Below are positions 5,831 through 33,688 of a DNA stretch of 64,000 nucleotides, one piece after another; the first letter of the stretch is position 1; each line of letters starts with the position of its first letter. This DNA comes from an uncultured bacterium (lineage in GTDB: Bacteria; Bacillota_I; Bacilli_A; RFN20; CAG-826). The stretch is taken from NCBI GenBank assembly GCA_949285665.1, contig CASDYC010000001.1, positions 5,376-69,375 on the forward strand, read 5' to 3'. The position numbers and the translations under genes were made by a program. The notes below the pieces were generated by a model. The model ran no database searches and had not been told where the DNA came from. It worked only from the letters and a program-made list of their open reading frames with translations.

Positions 5831-7022
5831 TTTAGTTTTATTTTCAGTTTTATCATTTTCATTTTTAACAAGTGCTGGTATAAATAATAATAAAATAGAA
5901 GATGGAACCTATATCTATCAAGATGAATACAAAATAGAAGATTTTGTAATGGAATATGATAGAACTGAAATTGTTTATCATGAGCATGGACAACCAAGTA
6001 GAGATCAGCCTCATTATTATTATAAAATAAAATTTAATTATACACCTTTAGTTAAAAATGCTATTAAAGCATCTTTTGAAGTTGAAACAAAAGGTGGAGT
6101 TTTTAAAGTTGATTTACCTTCAAGAATGTCTTCTATAAGTCGAAAATATCAAGCAACTTGCGAATTTTATTTTGATAAAAGTGAAGATTTCATTGATTTT
6201 AGATTTAATTATGGTGTTAATGATACATTTATAAGTTTATATAATTCTGAATTTAAAGCCTCAACAACAACACTAAATATTAATCAAGATGATTTATTAA
6301 CACAAAAAATATTTGAATTCGAACAAGGAGTCCCGGTAATTTTAAATGGAAGATTTACAAATTTAATTCAAGTATATGATTTTTCAACATTAAGGTATAA
6401 TGACATACATGATTTATATTATGGTAAAGTTGATTATAGTTGTTATAAGTATAGATACACAGACAACGATCCTGAAAATCCTATACTAGATTCAAATCTT
6501 AATTCAAAACGTGTGAGATGCTCACATTATAGAGATGTTAATACATCTTTAAAAATGTGCCTAAATATTAAATTTAACGAAGATACAATTAGTTGTCATT
6601 TTACTGGTTATGATGCTCAATGCGGTAGCACTGATAGAGGCGGACATTACGATTATAGCTATATTTATAAAGATGGATACATGGTTTTAGAAGATGTAGT
6701 CACTGATGGTAAAGTAAAAATGCATTATAGCGACAACCCATCTTATATGGTTAATGTATTAGAAAAAGATGTAAATAGATATTTAAAAACTGGATATAAA
6801 ATGTCAGATGCAATATATTTTGCAAATAATTTAGATTCTTACAAAGGGTTTAGATCGATGTATTGTAGACCAACTTTTTCTTTAGACAAACTTTATATAT
6901 CTTGCTCAAATGAAAAAATTGGTTTTAGAAAAGAATTATATTTTAATCACCAAAATGATTATTATCTAAATGGACAATTTAATACTGGTGATAATAAGTA
7001 TAATGAGGTGTTTATTGTTTAA
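5811..7022 (+). CDS. secreted hypothetical protein (signal peptide)
   Basis: N-terminal hydrophobic signal MKVSKGSLVLFSVLSFSFLTSAG. First gene of a pilus/secretion-like cluster. Confidence 0.4.
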   Translation: MKVSKGSLVLFSVLSFSFLTSAGINNNKIEDGTYIYQDEYKIEDFVMEYDRTEIVYHEHGQPSRDQPHYYYKIKFNYTPLVKNAIKASFEVETKGGVFKVDLPSRMSSISRKYQATCEFYFDKSEDFIDFRFNYGVNDTFISLYNSEFKASTTTLNINQDDLLTQKIFEFEQGVPVILNGRFTNLIQVYDFSTLRYNDIHDLYYGKVDYSCYKYRYTDNDPENPILDSNLNSKRVRCSHYRDVNTSLKMCLNIKFNEDTISCHFTGYDAQCGSTDRGGHYDYSYIYKDGYMVLEDVVTDGKVKMHYSDNPSYMVNVLEKDVNRYLKTGYKMSDAIYFANNLDSYKGFRSMYCRPTFSLDKLYISCSNEKIGFRKELYFNHQNDYYLNGQFNTGDNKYNEVFIV

Positions 7023-7024
7023 TT

Positions 7025-7399
7025 ATGTGGGGCGTTTTACTTGGTGGTTTATCATTAATTCTTGGAATTAATTTTTCAATTACTTCTGTATCTTTTGCAT
7101 CGTTAAATAATGCATTTAATGAAATAACAAGCAATTTTATTACTAATTCTTGTCATTATTCAATGAATGATGTTTATATTGATAAAGATTTATTAAAAGA
7201 AAATTTAAAAAATCATTTTCAAAGTAATGTTAATAATCTTGTTAAAACAATTAAGATATATTTAGAATATTACAACGAAAATAAAATAATGACATTTGAT
7301 GATAAGCCAAAAGGAGTAACAATTGTTGTTACATCAGATTTTGTTTATGGAAAATTTAAGAAAGGAATAACTTATTTTATAGAAGATGGAAATGATTGA
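7025..7399 (+). CDS. small N-terminally membrane-anchored protein, possibly a pseudopilin-like component
   Basis: Single N-terminal TM segment (GVLLGGLSLILGINFSI). Adjacent to the secretion ATPase gene. Confidence 0.3.
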   Translation: MWGVLLGGLSLILGINFSITSVSFASLNNAFNEITSNFITNSCHYSMNDVYIDKDLLKENLKNHFQSNVNNLVKTIKIYLEYYNENKIMTFDDKPKGVTIVVTSDFVYGKFKKGITYFIEDGND

Positions 7400-10495: not shown

Positions 10496-10921
10496 TTATT
10501 TTTTGATTAATTCAGAAACTTTTTTCATATCGACTCTTCCAGCATAATGAATTTTGAGATATTTCATCACAGAAGGTAGCGATTTATCTTCTAAAGAATC
10601 AATAATTTTTAAAATTTCACCATCTGTTAACATTTTTGGTAAAAAAGTTGAAATAATATTAATTTGATATTGAATGTCATCAACTTTTTGAGTGTTGTTA
10701 ACAGATAAATAACCTTGTTTTTCTTCTTCTAATTCTTTAATTGTTTTTTGAATTATTGATATAACTTCATTATCAGTAGGTTTATTTTCTACATGATTTT
10801 TATCAGAGGATAAAATCATGTATTTGTTTATGATAATACTCATTATACCTTTTTTTACATGATCTCTTTGTTTTATAGCATTTACATTTTCTCTTTTAAT
10901 TTCATCGATTAGCATAATCAA
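10496..10921 (-). CDS. GatB/YqeY domain protein
   Basis: 141 aa with an overall GatB_Yqey-like helical pattern. This call is from memory and has low specificity. Confidence 0.5.
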   Translation of the reverse strand: MIMLIDEIKRENVNAIKQRDHVKKGIMSIIINKYMILSSDKNHVENKPTDNEVISIIQKTIKELEEEKQGYLSVNNTQKVDDIQYQINIISTFLPKMLTDGEILKIIDSLEDKSLPSVMKYLKIHYAGRVDMKKVSELIKK

Positions 10922-10963
10922 TCCTCCGAAATAGTAAAGTTTTTTAATTTAATTTTTTAGTTA

Positions 10964-11317
10964 TTATAAAACTGTTTTCCAAAGTCCATGTAAATTACAA
11001 TATTCATAGACTTCAATAGCAACTTCACTTTCTGAAAGTTCAAAAACAGCTTTTGGTTCATCACCTGGATTTAATTCTTTTATATGAATTTCTTTATTTG
11101 TTTTTAATAAAATAAATTCAATATAGTGATTATCTAACATTGGATGTAATACTTCTCCAACATCAACAAGAATCTTATTTCCTTCTTTTTTAACAAATGG
11201 AACATGTTTTTCTAAAGCACCATCTGTTGTGTTTGCTGTGATTTCTTTTAAACAATCTAAATTTTGTTCGACAGAACTTAATACAATTTTATTGTCTTTT
11301 GTTTTATAAAATTTCAT
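10964..11317 (-). CDS. superoxide reductase (desulfoferrodoxin/neelaredoxin family, class III-like without an N-terminal Cys4 site)
   Basis: Centre-II ligand motifs EKHVP, HPM and NHYIE, and the highly diagnostic C-terminal CNLHGLW. Confidence 0.75.
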   Translation of the reverse strand: MKFYKTKDNKIVLSSVEQNLDCLKEITANTTDGALEKHVPFVKKEGNKILVDVGEVLHPMLDNHYIEFILLKTNKEIHIKELNPGDEPKAVFELSESEVAIEVYEYCNLHGLWKTVL

Positions 11318-11376
11318 AAATAACCTCCCATTACATTTATTATTACATAATTATTTTTTATTATTCAATAATATGC

Positions 11377-13293
11377 TTATTTATTTAATGATTTTAACAT
11401 TAATTCAGTTAATAATTTAGAAAAATTCTCTGGATCTTTAATTTGGAAACCTTGAATTAACATTGCTTGATCATATAACAAATTAGAATAGAAACTAATA
11501 TCTTCATCGTTCAATAATGTTGATAAATTTTTAAATAATTCATGATTTGGATTAATTTCTAATACTTTAATAGCTTTATGTTTTTCATCACTTCCAGGCA
11601 TGTTATTTAAAGTGTTTTCCATTTCAAGAGTTAAACCTTCTTTATTAGAAAGGCAAACAGGAGCAGTTGTTAATTTTGAAGAAATAACAACGTCATCGAC
11701 TTTATCTTTTAAAGAATTTTTAATTTTATCTAATAATTGTTTGTTTTGATTGTTTAAATCTTCGATTTTCTTTTTTTCTTCATCATTTAAAATGTCAATT
11801 TCTTCATTTGTAATAGATTTAAATTCTTTTCCATTATAATCTTTCATCATCATGAAACAGAATTCATCTACTGGTTGAGTTAAGAATAAAACATCATAAC
11901 CTTTTTTCTTAAATATATCGATCTGTGGCATTAAATTTATTGCTTCGTTTGTTGAGCCAGCAGCATAGTATATATATTTTTGATCCTTTTGCATTTTATC
12001 GATATATTCTTTTAAAGATATTGATTTTTCTTGATTATTTAATGATTTATAAATTAACAAATCTTGTAATTCATCTTTCTTAGAGCCATAACTTGTATAA
12101 ATACCGTATTTTAAGTGACTTCCATAAAGATCGAAGAATTTATTATATTTATCAAAGTTATTATCCTTTAATTTTTTCAATTCAGTAATAACTTTTGATT
12201 CAATACTATCTTTAATTCTTCTTAATTGAGCAGTTTGTTGTAAAATTTCTCTCGAGATATTTAAAGAAAGATCATCTGAATCTACTAAACCTTTAATAAA
12301 TTTTAAATAATCAGGAACCAATTCTTTAACTTTATCTTTAATAAATACACCTTTGACATATAAAGTTAATCCTTTTTCATAATTTTCGCTGTATAAATCA
12401 TAAGGAGCATGTGATGGAATAAAAATTAAAGATTTATAAGACATCATGCCTTCAACATTTATATTTAGTGATAAAAGAGGATCTTCAAAATCATAAAATT
12501 TATTCTTATAAAATTCATTTAATTCTTGTTCAGTGACTTCTTTTTTGTTTTTCTTCCAAAGAGGTATCATTGAATTTAATGTCTTGATTTCTTTTTCATC
12601 ATGATATTTATTTTCGATTGGTTTTCCATCTTTATCTAAATCTTGTTTGGATACAGTGACTTCCATTTTAATTGGATATCTGATGTAATCAGAGTATTTT
12701 TTAACTAAATCCTCAAGTTCGTATTGTTCTAAATATTGTGAATAATTTTCTTCTTTTGTATCATCTTTTAAATAAATGTTTACTTTAGTTCCAAAATTTT
12801 CTGTTTCAAATTCATCAATAGTGTATGAATCTTCGCCATCAGACTCAAAAGTATAACCTTTCTCATCTTTATATGATCTAGTTATAACTTGAATCTTTTT
12901 AGCAACCATAAAAGCACTATAAAAACCAACACCAAATTGACCAATAATATCAATATTATTTGAATCTTTCAATTGAGCTAATTTTTCTAAAAATTCCTTA
13001 GAACCAGATTTAGCAATAGTACCTAAATTTTCAATTAATTCATTTTTAGTCATACCAATTCCATTATCAGAAATTGTTAAGACTCTATTCTTTTTATCAA
13101 CTGAAATATCGATTTCATAATTTCTATCTTTAAGTTTTGAATTACTCATTAAGACATCATAGTGATATTTATCTATTGCATCGGATGCATTAGAGATAAT
13201 TTCTCTTAGAAATATATCTTTATTACTATAAATTGAGTTTATCATTAAATTTAATAATTGTTTTGATTCTGCTTGAAATTTCATTTTTTCCAT
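11377..13293 (-). CDS. htpG: molecular chaperone HtpG (Hsp90)
   Basis: 638 aa. GHKL ATPase N-terminus with NKDIFLREIISNASDAIDK and the IGQFGVGFYSAFMVA glycine-rich box. CIRCE element upstream. Confidence 0.9.
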   Translation of the reverse strand: MEKMKFQAESKQLLNLMINSIYSNKDIFLREIISNASDAIDKYHYDVLMSNSKLKDRNYEIDISVDKKNRVLTISDNGIGMTKNELIENLGTIAKSGSKEFLEKLAQLKDSNNIDIIGQFGVGFYSAFMVAKKIQVITRSYKDEKGYTFESDGEDSYTIDEFETENFGTKVNIYLKDDTKEENYSQYLEQYELEDLVKKYSDYIRYPIKMEVTVSKQDLDKDGKPIENKYHDEKEIKTLNSMIPLWKKNKKEVTEQELNEFYKNKFYDFEDPLLSLNINVEGMMSYKSLIFIPSHAPYDLYSENYEKGLTLYVKGVFIKDKVKELVPDYLKFIKGLVDSDDLSLNISREILQQTAQLRRIKDSIESKVITELKKLKDNNFDKYNKFFDLYGSHLKYGIYTSYGSKKDELQDLLIYKSLNNQEKSISLKEYIDKMQKDQKYIYYAAGSTNEAINLMPQIDIFKKKGYDVLFLTQPVDEFCFMMMKDYNGKEFKSITNEEIDILNDEEKKKIEDLNNQNKQLLDKIKNSLKDKVDDVVISSKLTTAPVCLSNKEGLTLEMENTLNNMPGSDEKHKAIKVLEINPNHELFKNLSTLLNDEDISFYSNLLYDQAMLIQGFQIKDPENFSKLLTELMLKSLNK

Positions 13294-15614: not shown

Positions 15615-15688
15615 GCATCATTAGTTCAATGGTAGAACCTTGGCTTCCCAAGCCAATGATACGAGTTCGATTCTCGCATGGTGCTCCA
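15615..15688 (+). tRNA. tRNA-Gly (anticodon CCC), the prophage integration target
   Basis: 74 nt. Acceptor GCATCAT/ATGGTGC (one G-U pair), D-stem GTTC/GAAC, anticodon stem TTGGC/GCCAA, loop TTCCCAA, T-loop TTCGATT with an A49-C65 mismatch, discriminator U, CCA. The 3' 18 nt are duplicated at attR. Confidence 0.75.
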
Positions 15689-16131: not shown

Positions 16132-17130
16132 ATGAAAAATGTGAATAAAACCATTAATTTAATGATTAATAAATCCAAAGCTAATTTTCTTTACGCTATC
16201 GAAACTTTTAATAAACCTAAATTAGAGACTAAATTAGAAATATTTTTATTTTTAATTTGTAATGCTTGGGAGCTGTTATTAAAATCAAAATTATTAAAAG
16301 AAAATAAAAGTATATTTTATAAAGATAAAAAACATAAAAGCAGAACCATTTCATTAAAAGAAGCGCTTTGTAAAGTAATTCCAGATGAAAGAGACAAAAT
16401 TAGAATAAATTTAGAAACAATAATTGGTTTTAGAAATTCTGCACAACATTTCATTATTCCAGAATATGCAAATTTTTTAAATGATATAATTATAGCCAAT
16501 GTTCTAAATTTTATTGATAAGTTTAAAGATTTTAATGGTGATAATTTAGTCGATTATTTTGACAATAATTTTATTAATATCTTTGTTCCTCATGAATATT
16601 CTAAAATTGAAATAGTTTCTAAATACGGGAAAGATGTTTACGACAATTTTATTAAAAAAGAAAAATATATAAATAACTTATTAGATAAAAGTTTAGATGT
16701 GGAAAATAACGTAGATAAAAGAATAGCTATTACTTACAATTTTAAAGCACAATTAGTTAAGCGAAATGCCGATTTAACAATTTCAAATAAATATGCAAAA
16801 GGGAAGAGCCTTTTCAATGCCGTTATGATTTCTAATGAAAACTATAAATCGGTATACCCTTATACTTGTAGTAAAATAATAAAATTGGTGAATGAACGAT
16901 GCCAAGAAGAAAATATTAGTTTTACTCCAGTGAGTGATAAAGCATCTAAAAATTTTAATAAACATACACTCCAAATTTATTTAAAAAAATATAACATTAA
17001 AAATAATAGAGAATTCAGTTTTGAATTATCGACTAATGATAAAAATAAAAGTTATTTATATTCAGTAAATCTTTTAGAGAAAATAATTTCTGATTTAAAA
17101 AGCGATCCAGATATTTTTATCAAAAAGTAG
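16132..17130 (+). CDS. hypothetical cargo protein (DUF3644-like N-terminal region; possible Abi/defence-type)
   Basis: 332 aa. N-terminal FLYAIETFNKPK...NAWELLLKSKLL...IIGFRNSAQH pattern, recalled as DUF3644-like. The gene sits between attL and int, the classic accessory-gene location. Confidence 0.35.
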   Translation: MKNVNKTINLMINKSKANFLYAIETFNKPKLETKLEIFLFLICNAWELLLKSKLLKENKSIFYKDKKHKSRTISLKEALCKVIPDERDKIRINLETIIGFRNSAQHFIIPEYANFLNDIIIANVLNFIDKFKDFNGDNLVDYFDNNFINIFVPHEYSKIEIVSKYGKDVYDNFIKKEKYINNLLDKSLDVENNVDKRIAITYNFKAQLVKRNADLTISNKYAKGKSLFNAVMISNENYKSVYPYTCSKIIKLVNERCQEENISFTPVSDKASKNFNKHTLQIYLKKYNIKNNREFSFELSTNDKNKSYLYSVNLLEKIISDLKSDPDIFIKK

Positions 17131-17253: not shown

Positions 17254-18360
17254 TTATACTAACTTATCAATTATGTCTTTATTTATATTTGGAAATAAAT
17301 GAGAATAAGTATCAAGAGTTTGTTGAGTTGAAGCATGTCTTAAGTGCTTTGATACAACTAAAATATTAACACCCTGGTTAATCATACGTGATGCCATTGA
17401 ATGCCGTAAACCGTGTTTTGTAATATGAGGAACTCCGGCAAGTTCAATATGAGCATCCATAACTCTTTTAATTGAAGTTCTTGAAGTGTGCTTAATAAAG
17501 AAAATATAATCATCTGGATTAGGGCAATTTTCTTCCTCATATATTTTTAACTCATCCATTAAGAAAGTTGGAAGTGTGACAGAGTTTGAAGAAGATGAGT
17601 TTTTAGTAGTTGCATCATGCCCATGCTTATCTAATTGGCGTTTAATAGAGATAGTTTTGTTTGCATAGTTTATATCTTTAAATTTAAGACCTAAAAGCTC
17701 TCCAATTCTTAAAGCGCCCCAGTAAGTAACTTCAAAAAGTAGTTTCCATTTTTTCTCATCTTCAGCAAAACTATTAATAAATTTGTTATATTCTTCCACA
17801 GTCCAAAATTGTAATTCTTTTTTAGGCTTTTTAGCTTCTTTAATTGGTTTTAAAAGAAGTTTGATTTTTCCACCCATTTCAAAAGAAAACATATCAAGAC
17901 TACAAGCATAGTCAATTACTGCTCTTAAAATAGCATAACCAAAATTAATCATTTTAGGGCATAAATCAACGCCTTGCATACTGACTTTATATTTATTTAC
18001 ACTTATTATAGATATCGCTTTATCAATAGGCTGTTTGATTTTAAAGTTAGGTTTTATATATTTGTTTATGAATAACTTTTGACTATATGCTGTTCCTTCT
18101 TTATTTGTTAGGTATTTTTCTTTAATATAGTCATTTAAGACATTATCAAGAGAATTTGCAACTCGACCATGGTAGTTTATTATTCTTTTCTTTTTATCTT
18201 CTTCAACAATTTCATCTTCAAGAAGTTTAAGTCTTTTTTTGCCAAACTCCGTAGTCCAGTTTTTATTTCTTATTTTAACTTTGGTAGTAGAACCATCGTA
18301 ATTATTAATATAGTATTGAATATAATATTGTTTTCTTTTTTTATCTAATATAATTGCCAT
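17254..18360 (-). CDS. int: tyrosine integrase (phage integrase family)
   Basis: 368 aa. C-terminal catalytic region HGLRHSMASRM...LRHASTQQTLDTYSHL with the R...HxxR...Y signature, plus ALRIGELLGL. Adjacent to attL. Confidence 0.85.
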   Translation of the reverse strand: MAIILDKKRKQYYIQYYINNYDGSTTKVKIRNKNWTTEFGKKRLKLLEDEIVEEDKKKRIINYHGRVANSLDNVLNDYIKEKYLTNKEGTAYSQKLFINKYIKPNFKIKQPIDKAISIISVNKYKVSMQGVDLCPKMINFGYAILRAVIDYACSLDMFSFEMGGKIKLLLKPIKEAKKPKKELQFWTVEEYNKFINSFAEDEKKWKLLFEVTYWGALRIGELLGLKFKDINYANKTISIKRQLDKHGHDATTKNSSSSNSVTLPTFLMDELKIYEEENCPNPDDYIFFIKHTSRTSIKRVMDAHIELAGVPHITKHGLRHSMASRMINQGVNILVVSKHLRHASTQQTLDTYSHLFPNINKDIIDKLV

Positions 18361-18508: not shown

Positions 18509-18853
18509 TTAACTATCATTAATTATAAAATCATTAATGAATTTACTAATTTTATTCAGTTCTTTTAAATCATCGATTTTTTCAATTAATTTATTAATTT
18601 CTTGTCTTTTTAAAATAACTTCTGAATCAATAATTCGTTCTCTTGTCTTAATACCTAAAATTGTTTCAATAGGCAAATGTAATGCTTGCGACAATAAGTA
18701 TATTGAGCCTCTTTTTATATTATCAATTTCTCCTGTTTCCCATCGTGAAACTGTGCTCTCACTTACATAACACATTTGAGCAACTTCTTTCATTGTTAAT
18801 TTTAATGAAATTCTTCGTTCTCTTAATATTTTTCCAACTTCGTTATTTTTCAT
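18509..18853 (-). CDS. CI-like repressor (HTH_XRE)
   Basis: 114 aa. N-terminal HTH (LTMKEVAQMCYVSESTVSRWETG). Divergent from a Cro-like gene, with operator repeats in between. Confidence 0.7.
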   Translation of the reverse strand: MKNNEVGKILRERRISLKLTMKEVAQMCYVSESTVSRWETGEIDNIKRGSIYLLSQALHLPIETILGIKTRERIIDSEVILKRQEINKLIEKIDDLKELNKISKFINDFIINDS

Positions 18854-25709: not shown

Positions 25710-26414
25710 ATGGACAAAAGATTTAATTTTATTCATTCAAACGCTAGAAAGATTTGGTATATAAATGGCCAAAAATTTGAAAGTGATAAAGGAAGTAATA
25801 ATGGCAAACAAAAAGCCATTACATACGCACGTGAGCATTTACTGGATGAAAAAGACATTAAGAAATTTGATAGTCTTATGGAATTTAATCGTTATTTATT
25901 TTTAAAATCCAGGGAAGAAAAGGGAGAGATTAGTTATTTTAAAGATCATTTTGTTTTTCCGCTTTTAAAAGCATTTAAAAACGCAGATGGAATAGAGCAT
26001 GATGAATTACTTTATGAAGCTGATTTTTACTATTATGACAAAGTTTTAAAGAAGTTTATCGTAGAAGATGTTAAAGGTAATTTAGAGGATGTTTTTAGAG
26101 TTAAATGGAAGATATTTGATTTAATATACCTAAAAAGAAATTTAGCAATTAAATGCGTGCGCATGCGTGCACGTAAAGATCCATTAGATTCTGATAGTTG
26201 GTATTATTTTAATGAATTTGAAAAGCCTCAAAAAAATGTGGAAAAGTTAAGAGAAAAAAATAAGAAGTTAGAAAGTGAATTAAAGAAACTTGAAGCAGAG
26301 AAAAAGAAAGAAATGCGTGAGCGTGCACGCATGAAGGAACTTAAAAACAAAGAAAAACTAACAAGCTCTGAAAAGAAAAGATTAGAGGAATTAAAAAAGA
26401 AATATGAAAGTTAA
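25710..26414 (+). CDS. hypothetical protein with a C-terminal K/E-rich coiled coil
   Basis: 234-aa ORF. Contains the first alternating GC-rich tracts (KCVRMRARK, MRERARMKE). Confidence 0.35.
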   Translation: MDKRFNFIHSNARKIWYINGQKFESDKGSNNGKQKAITYAREHLLDEKDIKKFDSLMEFNRYLFLKSREEKGEISYFKDHFVFPLLKAFKNADGIEHDELLYEADFYYYDKVLKKFIVEDVKGNLEDVFRVKWKIFDLIYLKRNLAIKCVRMRARKDPLDSDSWYYFNEFEKPQKNVEKLREKNKKLESELKKLEAEKKKEMRERARMKELKNKEKLTSSEKKRLEELKKKYES

Positions 26415-27198
26415 AGAATATGTTGAAAAAAATAAACTAACAACTTTGTATTTAATTGAGGATGATTATTTAGATATATTATCATCAAAGGACATTTATG
26501 ATGCATATAAAGAGAGAGAAATTACACGTTTTAGGACATATGGAGATTGTGGAATTGCAATAAGTTGTTTAAAAACTTATGATAAAATTACTAATATGTC
26601 ATATGTTTTAATGTATAAAAATAAAGATGGAATTGTTGCAGTTGGAGATAAAGCAGTAGCTAGAGTATTAAATTATGAACCTTATAAATACGAAGTTTTA
26701 AATTTAGATGCTGTTAAAGTGATGAATAATAAAAAGTTTGTAATAGGAATACTAGGAACTGGTGTAATTGATTATAAAAATAAATGCGCCTATATATCAG
26801 AGTTAGTAAATAAATTAATTAAAAAATGTAAAAGTGTTAAGTTATTTATTAAATCTTTTAATGCAATTTATAAAAAAGCATGTCTTCCAAAATGTGTTGA
26901 AAGTGTGGAATATCGTTTTTTTATAGCAGATAAAAACTTGATGTATGATGTTAGATTTAAAGATTTAAAATGCACGATCTATACAAAAGAAGAAGGGCTT
27001 TTATGTAATGTTCCAAGTTGTTATCAAGATGTAGATGTTTTTGAATTTGATCCTCTTTATATTATTTCAAGAAAATTTCAATATGCAATCGCACGCACGC
27101 ATGAGAAACAAAAATTAGAATTTGATAATACATTTTGTGTTAGTAAAGAAAGTGACTGCATTATTTTGAGGTTTGAAGGTGAAAAGTATGAAAGTTAA
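26404..27198 (+). CDS. hypothetical protein, paralog A (internal HslV/Ntn-hydrolase-like segment)
   Basis: Shares MSY(V/I)L...KDGIVAVGDK, FV(I/V)G(I/F)(L/V)GT and ...THE(K/N)QK...NTF(C/S)VSKESD blocks with the next ORF. Confidence 0.4.
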   Translation: MKVKEYVEKNKLTTLYLIEDDYLDILSSKDIYDAYKEREITRFRTYGDCGIAISCLKTYDKITNMSYVLMYKNKDGIVAVGDKAVARVLNYEPYKYEVLNLDAVKVMNNKKFVIGILGTGVIDYKNKCAYISELVNKLIKKCKSVKLFIKSFNAIYKKACLPKCVESVEYRFFIADKNLMYDVRFKDLKCTIYTKEEGLLCNVPSCYQDVDVFEFDPLYIISRKFQYAIARTHEKQKLEFDNTFCVSKESDCIILRFEGEKYES

Positions 27199-28006
27199 AG
27201 AAATAGTTGAAGAATGTAAATCAATGAAGGCTGAAGTATTTTTAATAGAAGGCAATATTGACGTTTTAAAAAATAAAAAATTGTATGAAAGAATAAAAAA
27301 TAAAGAAATTTTATATATAGATGCCGATATTCTTTATGATAATAAATTTTACATAAGCATTTCTTATGACTATGGTAAAATGTATAAAATGTCTTATATT
27401 TTAATTAAAAGAACGAAAGATGGTATTGTTGCAGTTGGTGATAAGGTGATGTCTTGTGTATCAAGTTTTTACCCGTTAAGAAGATATAAAACACTTTCAT
27501 TAGATGCTACTAAGGTTTTTAAAAATGAATATTTTGTAGTTGGTTTTGTAGGAACTGCTTTTGTTGATATTGACAACAAAGATATAAGTATTGAAGACGT
27601 CATTAAAAAATTATTAAAAGAGATAATAACAATTAAAGATTTTGTTGAAGAATTTAAAAAAATTTATAACAATATGAAGAGGTTTATCTATTTCAAAAAT
27701 GTTGAATATTCATTTTATTTAGTTGACAAAAATAGTGCGTGTGTATATGAGTTTAAACAACAAAAAAGCGATGAAAACACAAAGGCTATTGAAGATGGTT
27801 TTTTATTTAATACACCACTTTATCGTGAAGAACCAAAAATTAATGATACTGACAATTTAGAAGAAGTTGCTGAAAAGTTTAAAAACGCAATCTCACATAC
27901 ACATGAAAACCAAAAAAGAGAATTAGGGAATACTTTTAGTGTAAGTAAAGAATCTGATGTTGTAATTTTAAAGTTTAAAGGAGAAAAAAATGATAAAACA
28001 AATTAA
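27173..28006 (+). CDS. hypothetical protein, paralog B (internal HslV/Ntn-hydrolase-like segment)
   Basis: Tandem paralog of 26404-27198 (MSYILIKRTKDGIVAVGDK, KVFKNEYFVVGFVGTAFVD). Confidence 0.4.
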   Translation: MKVKSMKVKEIVEECKSMKAEVFLIEGNIDVLKNKKLYERIKNKEILYIDADILYDNKFYISISYDYGKMYKMSYILIKRTKDGIVAVGDKVMSCVSSFYPLRRYKTLSLDATKVFKNEYFVVGFVGTAFVDIDNKDISIEDVIKKLLKEIITIKDFVEEFKKIYNNMKRFIYFKNVEYSFYLVDKNSACVYEFKQQKSDENTKAIEDGFLFNTPLYREEPKINDTDNLEEVAEKFKNAISHTHENQKRELGNTFSVSKESDVVILKFKGEKNDKTN

Positions 28007-29159: not shown

Positions 29160-29190
29160 AAAAAAGCACTCAACTAAGAGTGCTTTTTCT
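29160..29190. terminator. bidirectional intrinsic terminator between convergent operons
   Basis: A-run, then GCACTC aactaa GAGTGC, then T5. A second hairpin lies at about 29090-29115. Confidence 0.6.
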
Positions 29191-29322
29191 AATTATTGTT
29201 TTTCATAATGCATTACTTGATTATTTATAATTACATATATTTCTTTTTGTTTTATAAATATTTTAAGTAAATACAAAGTATAAGTAATTGAATATTTATG
29301 ATGTAATAATTTTTTAAGTAAT

Positions 29323-29994
29323 TTATAAGTTGTCATATGCTTGATCCATTTCTTTAAAGTTAAATAATTTAGTATTTAACATAACTGGTTGTTGTAAGTA
29401 ATTTAAGTTTGAATAATAGCAACCGCCAACTTTATAAAACTTGTTAATTAGTGATACGTAACCATCTTTTGTCATAATTGCTAACTTGTTATATTCGCCA
29501 ATTAAGTTTTTTATTAGTTGCATTTTGTTATATCGTTTATCAAAGTATAAATCATTACCGATAATCAAAGACAAGTAATCTTTAATAAAAGTCATTGTAT
29601 CGTTATAATTTACTTTTTGATTATAGCTACTTGTTAAATGAATGATTCCATTATGAGCTATTCCAATATTAGCCGTTGTTTTTAACTCACGCATACGTGC
29701 GTAATCGCTACAAAGTGGGTATGGATGGCACAACTCTTTTTTTGTTCCGCCCTGGGTTGATATTCTAAAGTGTAAGACAAGTGGTATTTCTTTAATTTTT
29801 AAGTTGTTATCACTTAATAACTTTTTAATATCTTTAAGTAAATCATCTAGCTTATCAAATCCCTTGTGGATGATTACTTGATTATTTACTGGGGCCATAT
29901 AGCCGGCCCCATCCCCGTTTCTTTCAATACATTTTTTTAATGTTTCAATACTTGGTAAATCTTGGTTTACTGGTTTATAGATAATTACACACAT
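29323..29994 (-). CDS. class-II glutamine amidotransferase-like Ntn hydrolase (YafJ/GATase_4-like)
   Basis: Starts MCVIIY, the Cys2 N-terminal nucleophile typical of GAT-II. 223 aa. Translationally coupled to the upstream amidoligase-like gene (ATG/TAA overlap at 29994). Confidence 0.55.
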   Translation of the reverse strand: MCVIIYKPVNQDLPSIETLKKCIERNGDGAGYMAPVNNQVIIHKGFDKLDDLLKDIKKLLSDNNLKIKEIPLVLHFRISTQGGTKKELCHPYPLCSDYARMRELKTTANIGIAHNGIIHLTSSYNQKVNYNDTMTFIKDYLSLIIGNDLYFDKRYNKMQLIKNLIGEYNKLAIMTKDGYVSLINKFYKVGGCYYSNLNYLQQPVMLNTKLFNFKEMDQAYDNL

Positions 29995-31244
29995 TATAAT
30001 TGTTCCCCTTCCTTTTCGCTTGCGTATGTGCGCATGAATAAGCCTTGTTTTCTAAAATAATTAATTACTTTTAAATCTACATTTTTAAGCATTTTTGATA
30101 AGCAATAAATCTTGTTAAATGGCACATTTTTAAGATTTTCAGCAATACCAGCGAATAAAAGAAAGCAGTTTTTCATCCATTGAGCATCTGCAACGCTTCT
30201 AAATATTCTTATTTCAAAAGTTGCTTTTGAGTTAATTAAACAACGATTGTGGTCTGAGTTTAAATAATCGGTTGCATTACAAGATAAATCAAGTCTTTTT
30301 ATTGCTTCGTGGTAGTCTTTAATTTCATCGTATGTATAAAACTTACAATAACGCATTGAGTTTTCATCTCTTTTTGAAAGTTTTATAAAGTCTTCCTTGT
30401 ATATAGTCATAAAGTAAGCAAGTTTTAAAAAGTTTATCGCTTGTTCTTTTGAGTTATCACCAAAGACAAGTTTTGATATGTGTAAATGAATACCAGCGCT
30501 TTTAACGTTGTCATCATGACCGGTTTTTTTCATAAAATCAGCGATGATATTAAAATCTAATTGCTCTAAATATTTTCTTGAAAATACTTGACTAATCATC
30601 TCAAAGCCATAAGTTAAAGAGCCATCCATTTCAAATTTAAAATGTGTTTTTCTAGTTTTTCCATTTAAGTTATAAAAATCATCGGTTACTCTTGCATAAT
30701 AGCGGTTGTCTTTTCTAACTCTTAAACGGCTATTGTTAAAATTATCGATTTCAATTTCAAAGCCGTAGCCCTTAAAGTTGCTTTCATCCATTGTCTCGTT
30801 GTCTAGTTTAAAATATCTAACCTTGCTATCTCTTGCATCATTGCCCCAACCGTTATAATCAGAGTGATAACCGTTAATTACATACAAGTTTTTATATTCT
30901 TGTTCAAAGCAAGTATTGCAATATCTTGTGTCATTGCCCATGTAATGAGATTGAGTTTGTAAGTCTTGTGGTGCAATCCATTTTCCGCATTTATCACATT
31001 TTCTAAAACCAATATCACGCATTGCACGCTCAAGCGTGTCTATATTATCGCTTGCGTATATAAGCGTTTCAGTCTCTAATGTAAGTCTTTCATGTTGGTT
31101 TGTGTAAGTAGTAGTATCTAAATCAATAACTATTGTGTTGCTATTAACAAATAAGCTTATTAATGCTTCTTGGTCGCTTGTTACTAATTGAGCAACGTAT
31201 GATGCGTAAGTTTTTTTAATAGTAATAACATTGTATTTTTTCAT
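29994..31244 (-). CDS. amidoligase-like protein (PF12224-like GS-fold) with an N-terminal Cys4 zinc ribbon
   Basis: Motifs GYGFEIEI (E.E strand), DGSLTYGFE (DGS) and SAGIHLHIS (GxHxH), recalled from the putative-amidoligase family. CDKCGKW...CNTCF zinc ribbon. AAGGGGA RBS. Confidence 0.45.
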   Translation of the reverse strand: MKKYNVITIKKTYASYVAQLVTSDQEALISLFVNSNTIVIDLDTTTYTNQHERLTLETETLIYASDNIDTLERAMRDIGFRKCDKCGKWIAPQDLQTQSHYMGNDTRYCNTCFEQEYKNLYVINGYHSDYNGWGNDARDSKVRYFKLDNETMDESNFKGYGFEIEIDNFNNSRLRVRKDNRYYARVTDDFYNLNGKTRKTHFKFEMDGSLTYGFEMISQVFSRKYLEQLDFNIIADFMKKTGHDDNVKSAGIHLHISKLVFGDNSKEQAINFLKLAYFMTIYKEDFIKLSKRDENSMRYCKFYTYDEIKDYHEAIKRLDLSCNATDYLNSDHNRCLINSKATFEIRIFRSVADAQWMKNCFLLFAGIAENLKNVPFNKIYCLSKMLKNVDLKVINYFRKQGLFMRTYASEKEGEQL

Positions 31245-31371
31245 AGTATTTTATTTTCCCCTTAATTTTCTGCTCATTTTGCTTTATAATTAAGAGTGCA
31301 AAAGGGCTTAAAAACTCTTGTGTAATCGCTTGTTTTTTCTAGTTTGCCGACTTGTTAAACGGGCGATTTTT

Positions 31372-31554
31372 TTATTGCTTATTGACGTCACCTTCGATTA
31401 ATTTAGCCAAATAAGCACTTTTTGATGGTTGACTTTCAATTTTATCTATTAAGTGTTGTTGTGTATCTTTTCTAAGCATTAATCGATAATATTTATAAGT
31501 CTTTTTCTTGTATTTATAATTGCTTTTATTATCTTTTCTTGGCGTTGTTTTCAC
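31372..31554 (-). CDS. small basic ribbon-helix-helix-like protein (paralog 1 of 3), GTG start
   Basis: KTYKYYRLMLRKD (beta strand), TQQHLIDKIES (helix) and SKSAYLAKLIEGD (helix) follow the Arc/MetJ/CopG pattern. Preceded by GGAAGGGGG. Directly upstream of the amidoligase gene. Confidence 0.4.
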   Translation of the reverse strand: MKTTPRKDNKSNYKYKKKTYKYYRLMLRKDTQQHLIDKIESQPSKSAYLAKLIEGDVNKQ

Positions 31555-31584
31555 CCCCTTCCTTAAGTTGTAGGGCTTCCGCCC

Positions 31585-31680
31585 TTGACTTATACGTTTT
31601 AGTTTCTTATAATAATTGTGAACTTGGTAATCCAGAGATTAATTGTGATTCTAAACTCATAATTAACTCTGGTTTTTTTA
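31585..31680 (+). promoter_or_regulatory. promoter-like site plus intrinsic terminator mini transcription unit (unit 1), antisense to the minus-strand operon
   Basis: TTGACT, a 17-nt spacer and TATAAT at 31585-31613. CCAGAG...CTCTGG hairpin at 31632-31672 followed by T7. Confidence 0.4.
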
Positions 31681-31776
31681 TTTTTCTTTACCTTAAGTCT
31701 CACATTTATAATTAAACGCTTTCGTCAAGGGTTGCCCTATTAGTAAGTAAGTCATATTTAACAACCCCTTACACGT

Positions 31777-31822
31777 ATGTATGCAAGCGTGTTTCCTTGC
31801 TTGCAATAATAATTTAACATAG
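31777..31822. repeat. conserved hairpin block (copy 1): TGCAAGC gtgtttcctt GCTTGCA plus AATAATAATTTAACAT
   Basis: 33 nt identical to 32278-32310. A diverged third copy lies at about 32793-32835. Confidence 0.5.
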
Positions 31823-31856
31823 GCGTTCACCTAATGCAACATATATTTTTATTTTT

Positions 31857-32035
31857 TTATTGTTGCATGTCTTTTTTGATTAAGTTTACTAGATAATCAT
31901 TTTTGCTTTTTTGTTTTTCTATTTTCTCTATTAAGTCTTTTTGATTATCGATTCTTAATCTTAGAGTGTAAGATTTATAAGTCTTTTTGTTGTATCGATT
32001 TTGTCTTATCGTTGATTTTTTGGCGATATTTTCAC
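31857..32035 (-). pseudogene. RHH-like paralog 2; apparent frameshift at an A6 tract near the 5' end
   Basis: The GTG frame gives VKISPKNQR-stop. The +1 frame continues KKSTIRQNRYNKKTYKSYTLRLRIDNQKDLIEKIEKQKSKNDYLVNLIKKDMQQ, which is homologous to paralog 1. One extra A would restore the frame. Confidence 0.3.
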
Positions 32036-32045
32036 CCCCTTCCTA

Positions 32046-32119
32046 TTGATTTTTAAAACTCTCACTGCTATAATGATGCTGAGATATTTGAGATGACTAA
32101 TGTTTAGTCATCTTTTTTT
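32046..32119 (+). promoter_or_regulatory. promoter-like site plus intrinsic terminator mini transcription unit (unit 2)
   Basis: TTGATT, a 17-nt spacer and TATAAT at 32046-32074. 9-bp hairpin AGATGACTA/TAGTCATCT at 32091-32113 followed by T7. Confidence 0.4.
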
Positions 32120-32277
32120 ATCTCATGGATTAATAAAATTAACAAGATTAATGTAATAATTAAATCCATATAATTTATTAACCTTTCTACTATTAAGCAT
32201 TAAACCGGTGTAAGTTTTTTAAGTATGTTTAATAGCAGTGAGAGAAACTTTACACTTTATTAATGTAATAGTCTCAT

Positions 32278-32323
32278 GCGTATGCAAGCGTGTTTCCTTG
32301 CTTGCAATAATAGTTTAGCATAA
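32278..32323. repeat. conserved hairpin block (copy 2)
   Basis: GTATGCAAGCGTGTTTCCTTGCTTGCAATAATA is identical to copy 1. Confidence 0.5.
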
Positions 32324-32396
32324 TGAAACATTATTGCAATACCTTTTTTAAAAATATTTTAATTTTTATTTTTTATTACTGAAGTAATAAGATTTT

Positions 32397-32567
32397 TTAT
32401 TTTTTTAAATCGTTTTGAATTAGCGATAAAATATAAGCGTTTTTTGATTTAACACTTTCTAATTTTTCTATTATATCGCTCTGGGTATCTTTTCTAACTT
32501 GTAATAAATAACGCTTGTATGTCTTTTTTTTATATTTATTACTTGCGATTGTTTGCCTTGTTCCCAT
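32397..32567 (-). CDS. small basic RHH-like protein (paralog 3), ATG start with AAGGGGGA RBS
   Basis: 56 aa: MGTRQTIASNKYKKKTYKRYLLQVRKDTQSDIIEKLESVKSKNAYILSLIQNDLKK. Below the 60-aa cutoff of the ORF track. Same beta-alpha-alpha pattern as the other two. Confidence 0.4.
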   Translation of the reverse strand: MGTRQTIASNKYKKKTYKRYLLQVRKDTQSDIIEKLESVKSKNAYILSLIQNDLKK

Positions 32568-32583
32568 GATTTTATATTCCCCC

Positions 32584-32662
32584 TTGACAAAATAAAAACC
32601 CGTGCCATATAATATTAATGAAAGATTTAGATATTAGAGTTTAGTCATCTAATATCTTTTTT
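32584..32662 (+). promoter_or_regulatory. promoter-like site plus intrinsic terminator mini transcription unit (unit 3)
   Basis: TTGACA, an 18-nt spacer and TATAAT at 32584-32613. GATATTAG/CTAATATC hairpin at 32630-32656 followed by T6. The loop shares GTTTAGTCATCT with unit 2. Confidence 0.4.
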
Positions 32663-32935
32663 ATTTCAATTAATATCTTACGTATTAGAATTAAAAGTAA
32701 AATCTTTTTCATTCTAACGCATCCCCCTTTCTAGTTTTAATCCTAGCTCAAGATTACTAACTAGCGGTTGCCTTATGATGCTATGACACGGGTGCAAGTA
32801 AGCTTTTTCCTTACATGCATTAATAGTATGACATAAGTATATACACATTACAATATATTTTTAATTATTTTTTTATTTTTTTATGCGTGTTTGCGTATGC
32901 TTTCGCGTGCGTGTGTGCGTATGCGTGATTATGTA

Positions 32936-33020
32936 TATATTCTTTTAGATTTATATTATTCTTTCAGATTTATATTATTCTTTGAGATTTATATATATTC
33001 TTTCATATTTATATTTTTAT
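32936..33020. repeat. four tandem ~20-bp iterons (tattctttNagatttata-like)
   Basis: attcttttagatttat / attctttcagatttat / attctttgagatttat / attctttcatatttat in a non-coding stretch. Confidence 0.5.
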
Positions 33021-33316
33021 ATTGTATTTTCTATATCTATTTTTCTTTTTATTTATATGGCAATTTCAAAAATCTTAATTTTTAAAGATGAAAAAGATTA
33101 GAATAAAAAAAGATAATTTGATTAGATTATAAAAGAGGCGATTATTAATTTTTCTATATCATATATCACAATCAAGGTGTTTGATTTTCTTATTTCTTTT
33201 CATCCATCCAGAGCGTTAAAAATTGGCTTAAAATCTTATATTTTTATGTGGTGTCTTTTTCTTGTATTGCTCACATATCTATAAAACACCGATAAAACCG
33301 ATATTTTATAAAGTTT

Positions 33317-33340: not shown

Positions 33341-33416
33341 TAGATGATTTATTGGATGTTGCTTCCTCTGGAAGCAAAACAACAACAAAAAAATTTTTAA
33401 ATTTTCTATATATTGG

Positions 33417-33453
33417 AACCCCCACCCGGAAGGCAAATTCACCCCGGGGCGGC
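33417..33453. other. GC-rich palindromic island upstream of the terminase genes (candidate cos/pac region)
   Basis: aacccccacccggaaggcaaattcaccccggggcggc in otherwise about 20%-GC DNA, including the CCCCGGGG palindrome. Preceded by the GCTTCC tct GGAAGC hairpin at 33361-33375. Confidence 0.3.
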
Positions 33454-33658
33454 TAAAATGCAATTATTGTTCTTTTTAAAATTTTCCTTATTTTTTCCTA
33501 TTTTTTTAAATTTTATTATTTTTTTTATATTTTTTTAATGTAAACTTTTCTTGCATTTTTGTCAATAAATGTTGATATTTGTAAACTTTTATGTTTAAAA
33601 TGCAACATTTTATTTACTTTTTGCAAGTCATAATAAAAACTTGCTATTTTTAGTATAC

Positions 33659-33688
33659 TTGACATTAAGTTAGTTAATGATTATATTG
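33659..33688 (+). promoter_or_regulatory. late-operon promoter candidate
   Basis: TTGACA, an 18-nt spacer, then TATATT. The -10 element overlaps the first ATG of the ORF at 33677, so the transcript may be leaderless or start at the ATG at 33695. Confidence 0.35.

Follow-up and report, generated by a model that had tools for sequence, protein, structure and literature searches.

The window analysed here (64,000 nucleotides of contig CASDYC010000001.1, assembly GCA_949285665.1, from an uncultured bacterium of the GTDB lineage CAG-826) contains a prophage with a minus-strand cassette at 29161-32853. The cassette encodes two enzymes, a 416-amino-acid (aa) amidoligase and a 223-aa class-II glutaminase-type protein, behind a series of three small basic open reading frames (ORFs). 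It is a self-contained accessory unit of a temperate phage, and it belongs to a widespread, computationally predicted phage module, of which the embellishment here is a triplicated regulator unit. The 416-aa protein is, by predicted activity, an ATP-dependent carboxylate-amine ligase of glutamine-synthetase fold carrying a Cys4 zinc ribbon. The 223-aa protein is predicted from its modelled structure to be a stand-alone N-terminal nucleophile (Ntn) class-II glutaminase-type amidohydrolase with Cys2 as the nucleophile. By analogy with characterized enzymes we tentatively favour a reading in which the two would act as gamma-glutamyl ligase and gamma-glutamyl amidohydrolase on an amine-bearing target, the zinc finger serving for recruitment.

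The 416-aa protein scores 29.2 bits against PF12224 (Amidoligase_2), exceeding the Pfam gathering cutoff of 22, with residues 161-358 aligned to profile positions 6-235 of 245; its relatives score 26-44 bits. The AlphaFold2 model (predicted local distance difference test, pLDDT, 85) has a fold of the glutamine-synthetase/glutamate-cysteine-ligase type and matches YbdK and glutamate-cysteine ligases better than PafA, although its fold relatives are all below 20% identity. An alpha/beta domain of about 80 residues is followed by the Cys4 ribbon (residues 83-112) and then by the ligase core (about residues 160-400). Across 21 family members the core residues E163, E165, E205, D207, E215, H253, H255, R292, E344 and R346 are invariant, as are the ribbon cysteines C83, C86, C109 and C112. 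An earlier note, written from the letters alone, had called this protein an amidoligase from its GFEIE, DGS and GIHLHI motifs and proposed a Pfam search as a check; the call is borne out by the above-cutoff match and the invariant core. The zinc ribbon it described as an N-terminal fusion is indeed a Cys4 ribbon, but one that lies behind the alpha/beta domain rather than at the terminus itself.

For the 223-aa protein, class-II membership is argued from fold and motifs, because the Pfam GATase cutoff is not reached. Its AlphaFold2 model (pLDDT 91.2, from an alignment of 50 homologues), of four-layer alpha-beta-beta-alpha Ntn fold, draws from Foldseek the glutaminase domains of GlmS, GFAT and PurF as top matches (1xff, 3ooj, 6svq, 1ecf; probability 1.0, template modelling score 0.5-0.59, E 5e-6 to 1e-3), while other Ntn proteins such as proteasome and asparaginase appear only at E above 0.07. 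M1 and C2 are retained in at least 90% of the 50 family members, and H75-F76-R77, T80-Q81, H114-N115-G116 and D132-T133 are invariant. The program hhalign pairs HFRISTQGG with HTRWATHGE of GlmS and AHNGII with VHNGII; R77 corresponds to GlmS R73 and N115-G116 to N98-G99, while D132 corresponds to D123 by position only. The GlmS/PurF fold match, taken with the Cys2, Arg, Asn-Gly and Asp-Thr motifs, argues for a bona fide class-II glutaminase type, and the retained residues predict that it still recognises free glutamine or a gamma-glutamyl head group. The protein has no match in NCBIfam and none by sequence in the Protein Data Bank (PDB), and no Pfam domain is found on any of 120 listed glutaminase homologues (of 287 found). 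Neither PADLOC nor NCBIfam returns a match for any protein of the island, and the lysogenic-conversion or anti-defence module suggested in the earlier note is a conjecture. Most homologues of the 223-aa protein are 240-350 aa long and end in a Cys-rich C-terminal tail (YxF...C...YCxxC.....C) that the window protein lacks. The earlier reading of the MCVIIY start as that of an Ntn-Cys glutamine amidotransferase is upheld by fold and motifs; of the checks it proposed, the GATase_4 profile stays below cutoff while the structure falls in the Ntn/class-II group. Both folds are as that note predicted, and both genes are intact in relatives.

The stop codon of the ligase gene and the start codon of the glutaminase gene overlap by one base (TAATG) behind a AAGGAAGGGG Shine-Dalgarno sequence, in agreement with the translational coupling proposed earlier. 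A profile scan of IMG/VR with the glutaminase gave 162 stretches encoding relatives, from which 80 loci were kept; the full set, the window included, comprises 98 loci, in which ligase homologues were called with a hidden Markov model (HMM) of the ligase family. In 97 of the 98, the glutaminase-like gene is closely preceded by a ligase homologue of the same strand; among the 80 IMG/VR loci a single one lacks this upstream ligase. Because 97 of 98 loci carry both enzymes as intact homologues, the two ORFs are real genes. Two ligase homologues are present in four loci. Amidoligase paralogues flank the glutaminase gene in L025 and L032, both lie upstream of it in L096, and L046 carries the complete ligase-glutaminase pair twice in a row. 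Across 81 non-redundant loci, no further gene accompanies the pair as a conserved partner. The pair usually sits between replication and packaging modules and points away from the terminase genes; in 48 of the 61 loci whose flank is long enough, the large terminase subunit, from any of four different PHROG families, lies upstream in divergent orientation, so that the inverted island is a property of the module and not of this prophage.

Zinc fingers are likewise general, with CxxC...CxxC modules, often as arrays, N-terminal in 62 of 84 distinct amidoligases; in Pfam, some ligase relatives match LIM (one above cutoff) or double zinc ribbon. The amidoligase model has structural matches to at least 50 viral proteins in BFVD; roughly half of these bear the annotation amidoligase, and one is entered as "LIM domain containing protein". 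A word-indexed search produced 8, then 20 ligase clusters, and 287 glutaminase clusters. Among 50,697 cultured-phage records, blastn with the island and tblastn with the 416-aa protein found nothing, and tblastn with the glutaminase found six distant records. A scan of genome contigs matched only two rumen "Bacilli bacterium" metagenome-assembled genomes and one doubtful bin labelled E. coli. The earlier description of an unusual, possibly undescribed variant fails on these counts, because the pair is widespread, the zinc-finger fusion is the norm, and the pairing has already been reported in phages. A "first DNA in" idea was also considered and rejected, since the pair shows no enrichment near contig ends (11 of 42 contigs have it in the outermost 10% at either end, where 20% would be expected; p = 0.2).

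The features of the cassette, together with two genes at the start of the prophage, are these (window coordinates; SD, Shine-Dalgarno sequence):
17254-18360, minus strand: tyrosine integrase, at the start of the prophage
18509-18853, minus strand: cI-like helix-turn-helix (HTH) repressor
29161-29188, both strands: bidirectional intrinsic terminator, 11-bp stem AAAAAGCACTC...GAGTGCTTTTT with U/A runs on both sides (terminator scan and sequence reading)
29193-29336, minus strand: conserved 47-aa ORF, sharing 14 nt with the 223-aa gene at the latter's 3' end (ORF list)
29323-29994, minus strand: 223-aa class-II glutaminase-type gene, product starting MCVIIY
29994-31244, minus strand: 416-aa Amidoligase_2 gene, product containing YGFEIEID, FEMDGS and AGIHLHIS
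31372-31554, minus strand: small ORF copy 3, 60 aa, GTG start within the SD (ORF list)
31585-31690, plus strand: predicted antisense element of unit 3, promoter TTGACT-17-TATAAT at 31585-31613 (11/12), then hairpin and U-run; 31619-31695 folds at -19.4 kcal/mol, z -4.95
31783-31839, minus strand: predicted sense element of unit 3, promoter TTGCAT-17-TGnTAAATT at 31811-31839, palindrome GCAAGC-N10-GCTTGC at 31783-31804 (aligned with L006)
31857-32027, minus strand: small ORF copy 2, 56 aa, probable ATC start (32025-32027) 7 nt after GGGGGTG (six-frame reading)
32046-32121, plus strand: predicted antisense element of unit 2, promoter TTGATT-17-TATAAT with TG at 32046-32074, hairpin and U-run at 32090-32121; -20.6 kcal/mol, z -5.58
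32284-32339, minus strand: predicted sense element of unit 2, promoter TTGCAA-16-TGnTAAACT at 32312-32339, palindrome GCAAGC-N10-GCTTGC at 32284-32305
32397-32567, minus strand: small ORF copy 1, 56 aa, ATG start with a good SD (ORF list)
32584-32664, plus strand: predicted antisense element of unit 1, consensus promoter TTGACA-18-TATAAT at 32584-32613 (12/12), hairpin at 32629-32657 and U-run; -13.1 kcal/mol, z -2.66
32825-32853, minus strand: predicted sense promoter of unit 1, weaker (TTGTAA-17-TGnCATACT; unit alignment), followed by a degenerate GTAAG...CTTAC hairpin

The window, with a G+C content of about 26%, begins with host genes (NrdD, HtpG, five tRNAs) and continues into the prophage; the base composition together with NrdD and HtpG suggests an anaerobic host. 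The early operon of the prophage, with YqaJ, RecT and a DUF1064 protein, is on the plus strand, as is the packaging and morphogenesis module that starts at 33677 (terS-like protein of 120 aa, terL-like of 600 aa, portal-like of 699 aa), and the coding strand switches between 28763 and 33677. Ten window proteins were scanned, yielding the integrase, the HTH repressor, YqaJ, RecT, a DUF3644 protein and two host enzymes, while the three packaging and portal proteins had no match. All ORFs described in the earlier note are present where it placed them. Its claim that the island opposes all other phage genes does not hold, because the integrase and the repressor are likewise on the minus strand, and the extent it gave covers the core of a larger unit that runs from the terminator through the 47-aa ORF, the enzyme pair and the three small ORFs to the first sense promoter at about 32853. 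The terminator at 29161-29188 ends both the cassette and the converging early operon. The 47-aa ORF has counterparts at the same position, 91% identical in L006/L007 and 51% in L001-L003; it has no Pfam or PADLOC match. Rfam at gathering threshold returned from the window only tRNAs, plus two chance microRNA matches (E up to 5); the leaders gave no match to a riboswitch or other known RNA.

The three small ORFs are mutually 48-50% identical, their paralogy being evident from tblastn and HMM searches, and are spaced by about 300-370 nt, each with its own regulatory signals. The three tandem paralogs of the earlier note are, accordingly, real and diverged basic copies, though not contiguous ones. 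Copy 1 matches phrog_13890 at 2e-5. Copy 2 has no in-frame ATG, GTG or TTG; ATC is its only start at proper Shine-Dalgarno spacing, and the ATC context is kept in the orthologues of L006 (~7221) and L001 (~7695). Compared with the L006 orthologue, copy 2 has a nonsynonymous rate (dN) of 0.10 and a synonymous rate (dS) of 0.55 (dN/dS ~0.19), and is therefore a real gene under purifying selection. A -1 frameshift at A AAA AAT, from a GTG frame into the main frame, was rejected as an explanation, as L006 has the same frame and ATC context without the A-run. Gene callers passed over these small ORFs, which seem to begin with ATC in the three lineages; the L004 small ORF starts with ATA, or with a GTG buried in the Shine-Dalgarno sequence.

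Copy 3, directly upstream of the amidoligase, is the only copy with a positional counterpart in relatives. With an HMM built on six copies, L001, L004 and L006 each show a single copy, placed directly before the ligase gene; in more distant loci the copies it detects lie 3-5 kb downstream. Three copies are seen only in this window, close relatives having one. Synonymous sites among the three are near or at saturation, and the triplication is therefore old or was assembled by recombination; the single unit of L006 combines a unit-3-like leader with a copy-2-like ORF. In L017 (Logan ERR10610538), with an identical amidoligase, the contig stops 565 nt upstream of that gene, just past the proximal small-ORF unit (small ORF copy at 171-434), which suggests that tandem units break short-read assemblies. 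The intergenic region that separates terS from the small ORF in L004 has a stretch of N (~6960-7060) bordered by a direct repeat, a scaffolding gap in a tandem repeat.

A profile of the small protein run against 1.84 billion representatives collects 699 clusters, mostly of 55-70 aa, some with two or three fused copies. One family member is fused to a Walker-A protein resembling, by eye, FtsK-type ATPases, and the fused form P0245 ends, again by eye, in a classical CopG-type ribbon-helix-helix (RHH)-like sequence. Pfam finds nothing for the window copies and, for 115 family members, only single weak matches to RHH_7 (0.0095) and RepB-RCR_reg (0.0078); profile searches against the PDB return nothing relevant, and hhalign against CopG and Arc gives probabilities below 1%. 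The RHH-like assignment made earlier is thus not confirmed by significant Pfam, PDB or hhalign matches. The pattern YKxYxLxLR / D..IIEKLE / SKN / YL..LI fits an RHH layout by eye only, and an RHH fold is a reasonable guess.

Each of the three regulatory units is built to one plan, namely a sense promoter, a palindrome where the transcript begins, a leader some 230-270 nt long, and an opposing antisense promoter with its terminator. The sense promoters have TTGCAA or TTGCAT, a spacer of 16-17 nt and an extended -10 element TGnTAAAnT, and the sense regions of units 2 and 3 are 95% identical (repeat family D3). The antisense promoters match the sigma-70 consensus at 12, 11 and 10 of 12 positions, their -35 box being a conserved "GTCAAG"; they lie just 5' of the small-ORF Shine-Dalgarno sequences, with the hairpin and U-run following within 10-20 nt, and suggest that the units would yield antisense RNAs 35-75 nt long. 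The arrangement of facing promoters plus terminator recurs in L001 (7680-7616, minus strand), L004 (7643-7577, minus strand) and L006 with unrelated hairpin sequences; the antisense mini-units reported earlier are in this way both real and conserved. The palindrome GCAAG-N12-CTTGC is present at three sites of the 64 kb (31783-31804, 32284-32305 and 33623-33644), where 0.15 would be expected, the third copy lying just upstream of terS and downstream of a promoter-like site; it may serve as a common operator or form a hairpin at the 5' end of the RNA. In L004, AGCAAG-N19-CTTGCT follows the sense promoter. Between unit 1 and terS are direct low-complexity repeats (32884-33030; TGCGTGTTTGCGTATGC twice, TATTCTTTCAGATTTATAT three times), 87% identical in L006.

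In the favoured reading, the ligase would convert the gamma-carboxyl of glutamate to an acyl phosphate for coupling to an amine on a target, which the zinc finger may recruit; the Cys-nucleophile partner would hydrolyse or transfer the resulting gamma-glutamyl amide. In effect, one enzyme would set a gamma-glutamyl mark that the other then removes or trims, with the cassette controlled by the small, basic, probably DNA-binding protein encoded upstream and by the short antisense RNA. We lean towards this chemistry because the characterized enzymes of glutamine-synthetase fold (GS, GshA/GCL, PuuA, GmaS, PafA) activate the gamma-carboxyl of glutamate, and because pairs of a ligase and a gamma-glutamyl hydrolase have precedents in EgtA/EgtC and PuuA/PuuD. 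The partner still has the residues by which the free alpha-amino and alpha-carboxyl groups of glutamine or a gamma-glutamyl moiety are held. In prophages of Clostridium clostridioforme, amidoligase genes are listed at a distance of two genes from one for a gamma-glutamyl cyclotransferase (PMC11318856). The reading gains from the fact that class-II glutaminases and gamma-glutamyl cyclotransferases share a substrate class, the gamma-glutamyl amides.

Several observations weigh against it. The proposed chemistry is extrapolated from fold relatives less than 20% identical, and neither the ligase family nor the glutaminase family has a sequence-level relative among solved structures in the PDB. The ligase invariants are defined by conservation within the family rather than by a residue-level match to the metal and glutamate ligands of glutamine synthetase. 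The 223-aa protein reaches only 12.8 bits with GATase_4, whose cutoff is 23 (E 0.057), and the residues this protein retains would fit plain glutamine hydrolysis, that is, a supply of ammonia, equally well. On the regulatory side, a DNA-binding role for the small protein finds no significant profile support in Pfam, the PDB or hhalign, and the antisense elements may instead be a late promoter and a terminator needing antitermination, aimed at terS, since terS lies ~1.0-1.2 kb downstream in every relative. A more ambitious form of the gamma-glutamyl reading, in which a reversible "writer/eraser" system is aimed by zinc fingers at a host or phage macromolecule in host takeover or counter-defence, under a facing-promoter/antisense switch and a new small DNA-binding family (about 700 clusters, often with an ATC start), we regard as unlikely.

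The main rival is a two-subunit glutamine-dependent amidotransferase, in which the 223-aa protein would free ammonia and the ligase would turn an ATP-activated carboxylate (on a metabolite, a cell-wall precursor, a protein side chain or a modified base) into a carboxamide. It accounts just as well for the tight coupling and for the intact glutaminase residues. The class-II catalytic and glutamine-binding motifs are retained (Cys2 in at least 90%; Arg, Asn-Gly and Asp-Thr invariant) in a glutaminase that has no synthase domain of its own, and the one-base overlap and near-obligate co-occurrence suggest a stoichiometric complex. The fold precedent is missing, however, as we know of no characterized glutamine-synthetase-fold enzyme that takes ammonia from a glutaminase subunit, and the cyclotransferase found near other prophage amidoligases (PMC11318856) shares gamma-glutamyl amides as substrate with class-II amidohydrolases but cannot supply ammonia; we consider this rival a real but somewhat unlikely possibility. 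Lysogenic conversion, with the pair modifying the host envelope (a peptidoglycan stem peptide or surface polymer) and blocking superinfection, is improbable. The idea has been repeated for phiEco32 in papers citing Iyer et al. 2009 (PMC10580990, PMC11318856), and the cassette has, as morons often do, its own sigma-70-type promoters opposite to the early and late operons. Against this, neither enzyme has a signal peptide, a membrane segment or a cell-wall-binding domain, the zinc-finger arrays point to an intracellular macromolecular partner, and the pair is carried among the early genes of MEP402 (gp06-gp07) and UFV-P2, where lysogenic conversion would be meaningless because these phages are strictly lytic.

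Two further proposals have less to recommend them. Hypermodification of phage DNA or nucleotides, with a base substituent amidated or glutamylated as a shield from restriction, would suit a zinc ribbon that could bind nucleic acid, and Lee et al. see Pfam matches to amidoligase and amidotransferase, without an assigned function, beside thymidine-hypermodification genes of viral contigs (PMC8989533). Yet 5-hmdU kinase, aGPT-pyrophosphorylase, dUMP hydroxymethylase and DpdA-like proteins are not conserved neighbours in the 81 non-redundant loci, and none is encoded among the ten window proteins scanned and the DUF1064 protein, a scan outside which most early genes fall, so that absence is not proven; we judge this explanation very improbable. 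Scarcely credible is a Pup-like tagging system, in which the ligase would place a small protein or glutamate on lysines and the 264-aa and 277-aa products at the end of the early operon would be proteasome-like Ntn hydrolases working on the proteins so tagged. Two L004 neighbours do have weak matches to Pfam Proteasome (E 0.001 and 0.016, below cutoff), one of them being distantly similar to the window 277-aa protein (E 7e-5), and a small 47-aa ORF does follow the glutaminase gene. But the Proteasome similarity is sub-threshold, the window 264-aa and 277-aa proteins themselves match nothing in Pfam or the PDB, and their genes occur in the closest relatives only, being missing from L001 and from all IMG/VR loci. 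The C-terminus of the 47-aa ORF is not conserved (HYEKQ versus YYELRK), and YbdK and glutamate-cysteine ligases match the ligase better than PafA does.

Some neighbouring elements deserve mention in their own right. The genes for the 264-aa protein (26404-27198, plus strand) and the 277-aa protein (27173-28006, plus strand) encode paralogues 40% identical to one another, with counterparts in L004 at 10857-11456 and 11456-12070 (minus strand). They may be Ntn hydrolases. As proteasome-like neighbours they were rejected, the matches being sub-threshold and the genes confined to the closest relatives. About 100-280 nt upstream of terS there is an element with runs of G and C (33400-33460; CCCCCACCC...CCCCGGGGCGG) that has 54-62% G+C in a genome of about 26%, with counterparts in L001 (~6790-6880), L004 (~6600-6700) and L012 (~2730-2800). 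It folds no better than shuffled sequence (z +0.5 to +0.9), and because it has no stable fold it may belong to a cos or pac site. A gene at 16132-17130 (plus strand), flanked by tRNA-Gly (15615-15688) and the integrase, encodes a DUF3644 and EC042_2821 restriction-endonuclease-like protein that matches the PADLOC candidate defence family PDC-S19 at E 2.5e-70.

The pairing of an amidoligase with a class-II glutaminase ranks with the more widespread of the phage enzyme modules known from prediction only, and is found in Pseudomonas, marine, and gut or rumen phages. The value of the present case lies in the biochemical question that the module poses rather than in this locus, which is no new kind of system. 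The locus does add a compact two-enzyme version with clear invariant residues and a fixed position beside the packaging genes, whatever the terminase family, and its recognisable regulatory unit would indicate when the cassette is expressed. Gamma-glutamylation of a macromolecule, if true, would be a new phage strategy.

The closest known arrangements come from computation and from phage genome reports; no experimental characterization of the pair was found in the searchable literature, which agrees with the earlier statement that the pairing was predicted computationally and is experimentally uncharacterized. Iyer, Abhiman, Burroughs and Aravind reportedly predicted, in 2009 (Mol Biosyst 5:1636), PF12224 neighbourhoods with a class-II amidotransferase-like thiol amidohydrolase in mobile elements and phages. 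The window agrees with these in ligase family, type of partner, phage setting and in being known by computational prediction only, and differs in that its partner comes from a glutaminase-like family without a Pfam model and its ligase has a conserved Cys4 ribbon and an extra N-terminal domain. The LUZ24-like Pseudomonas phages (UFV-P2, tf, PaP3, TC6) have an early cluster of COOH-NH2 ligase, amidoligase, GATase and ATP-grasp genes, again with an Amidoligase_2 protein close to a class-II glutamine amidotransferase (PMC3890496), and the amidoligase of phage tf is a structural match (BFVD) of the window ligase. Those phages are lytic, however, their GATase is a 486-aa GATase_6 protein separated from the ligase by an HNH gene, and two further ligases (PF14395, ATP-grasp) are present, whereas the window prophage has just two directly overlapping enzymes with a dedicated regulatory unit. 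In the OM43 phages MEP401/MEP402 (Zobellviridae; gp06 and gp07), a glutaminase homologue 30-32% identical (tblastn) directly follows and overlaps a 548-aa upstream gene, as in the window; the authors noted PF12224 and GATase in more than 30 related genomes, with functions that "remain to be explored" (PMC10580990). MEP401 and MEP402 differ as lytic marine podoviruses in which the pair starts the early region, co-directional with the replication genes, and no small-ORF/antisense unit is known there.

Among cellular systems, EgtA/EgtC (ergothioneine) and PuuA/PuuD (putrescine catabolism) each combine a ligase of glutamine-synthetase fold that makes a gamma-glutamyl amide with a Cys amidohydrolase of glutamine-amidotransferase type that later removes the glutamyl group, and EgtC, like the 223-aa protein, is of class II. 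They differ in having no detectable sequence relationship to the window pair, chromosomal pathways, known small-molecule substrates and no zinc finger. Pupylation (PafA/Dop, Pup) is further away, since its deamidase is a paralogue of its ligase, whereas the window pairs a single ligase, similar to PafA at the level of fold only, with an Ntn glutaminase, and has neither a Pup-like protein with a conserved C-terminal Gln/Glu nor a supported proteasome. The regulatory unit is best compared with CopG/RNAII of pMV158 and sar/ant of P22, which are control modules made of an antisense RNA and a small repressor. As in those, a small, probably dimeric DNA-binding protein would be combined with a short, strong, hairpin-terminated antisense RNA to the operon leader. 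No homology to them was found (Rfam returned nothing), and the RNA predicted here would start ~35-40 nt upstream of the ribosome-binding site and leave it uncovered; it is also only in the window that the unit appears in triplicate.

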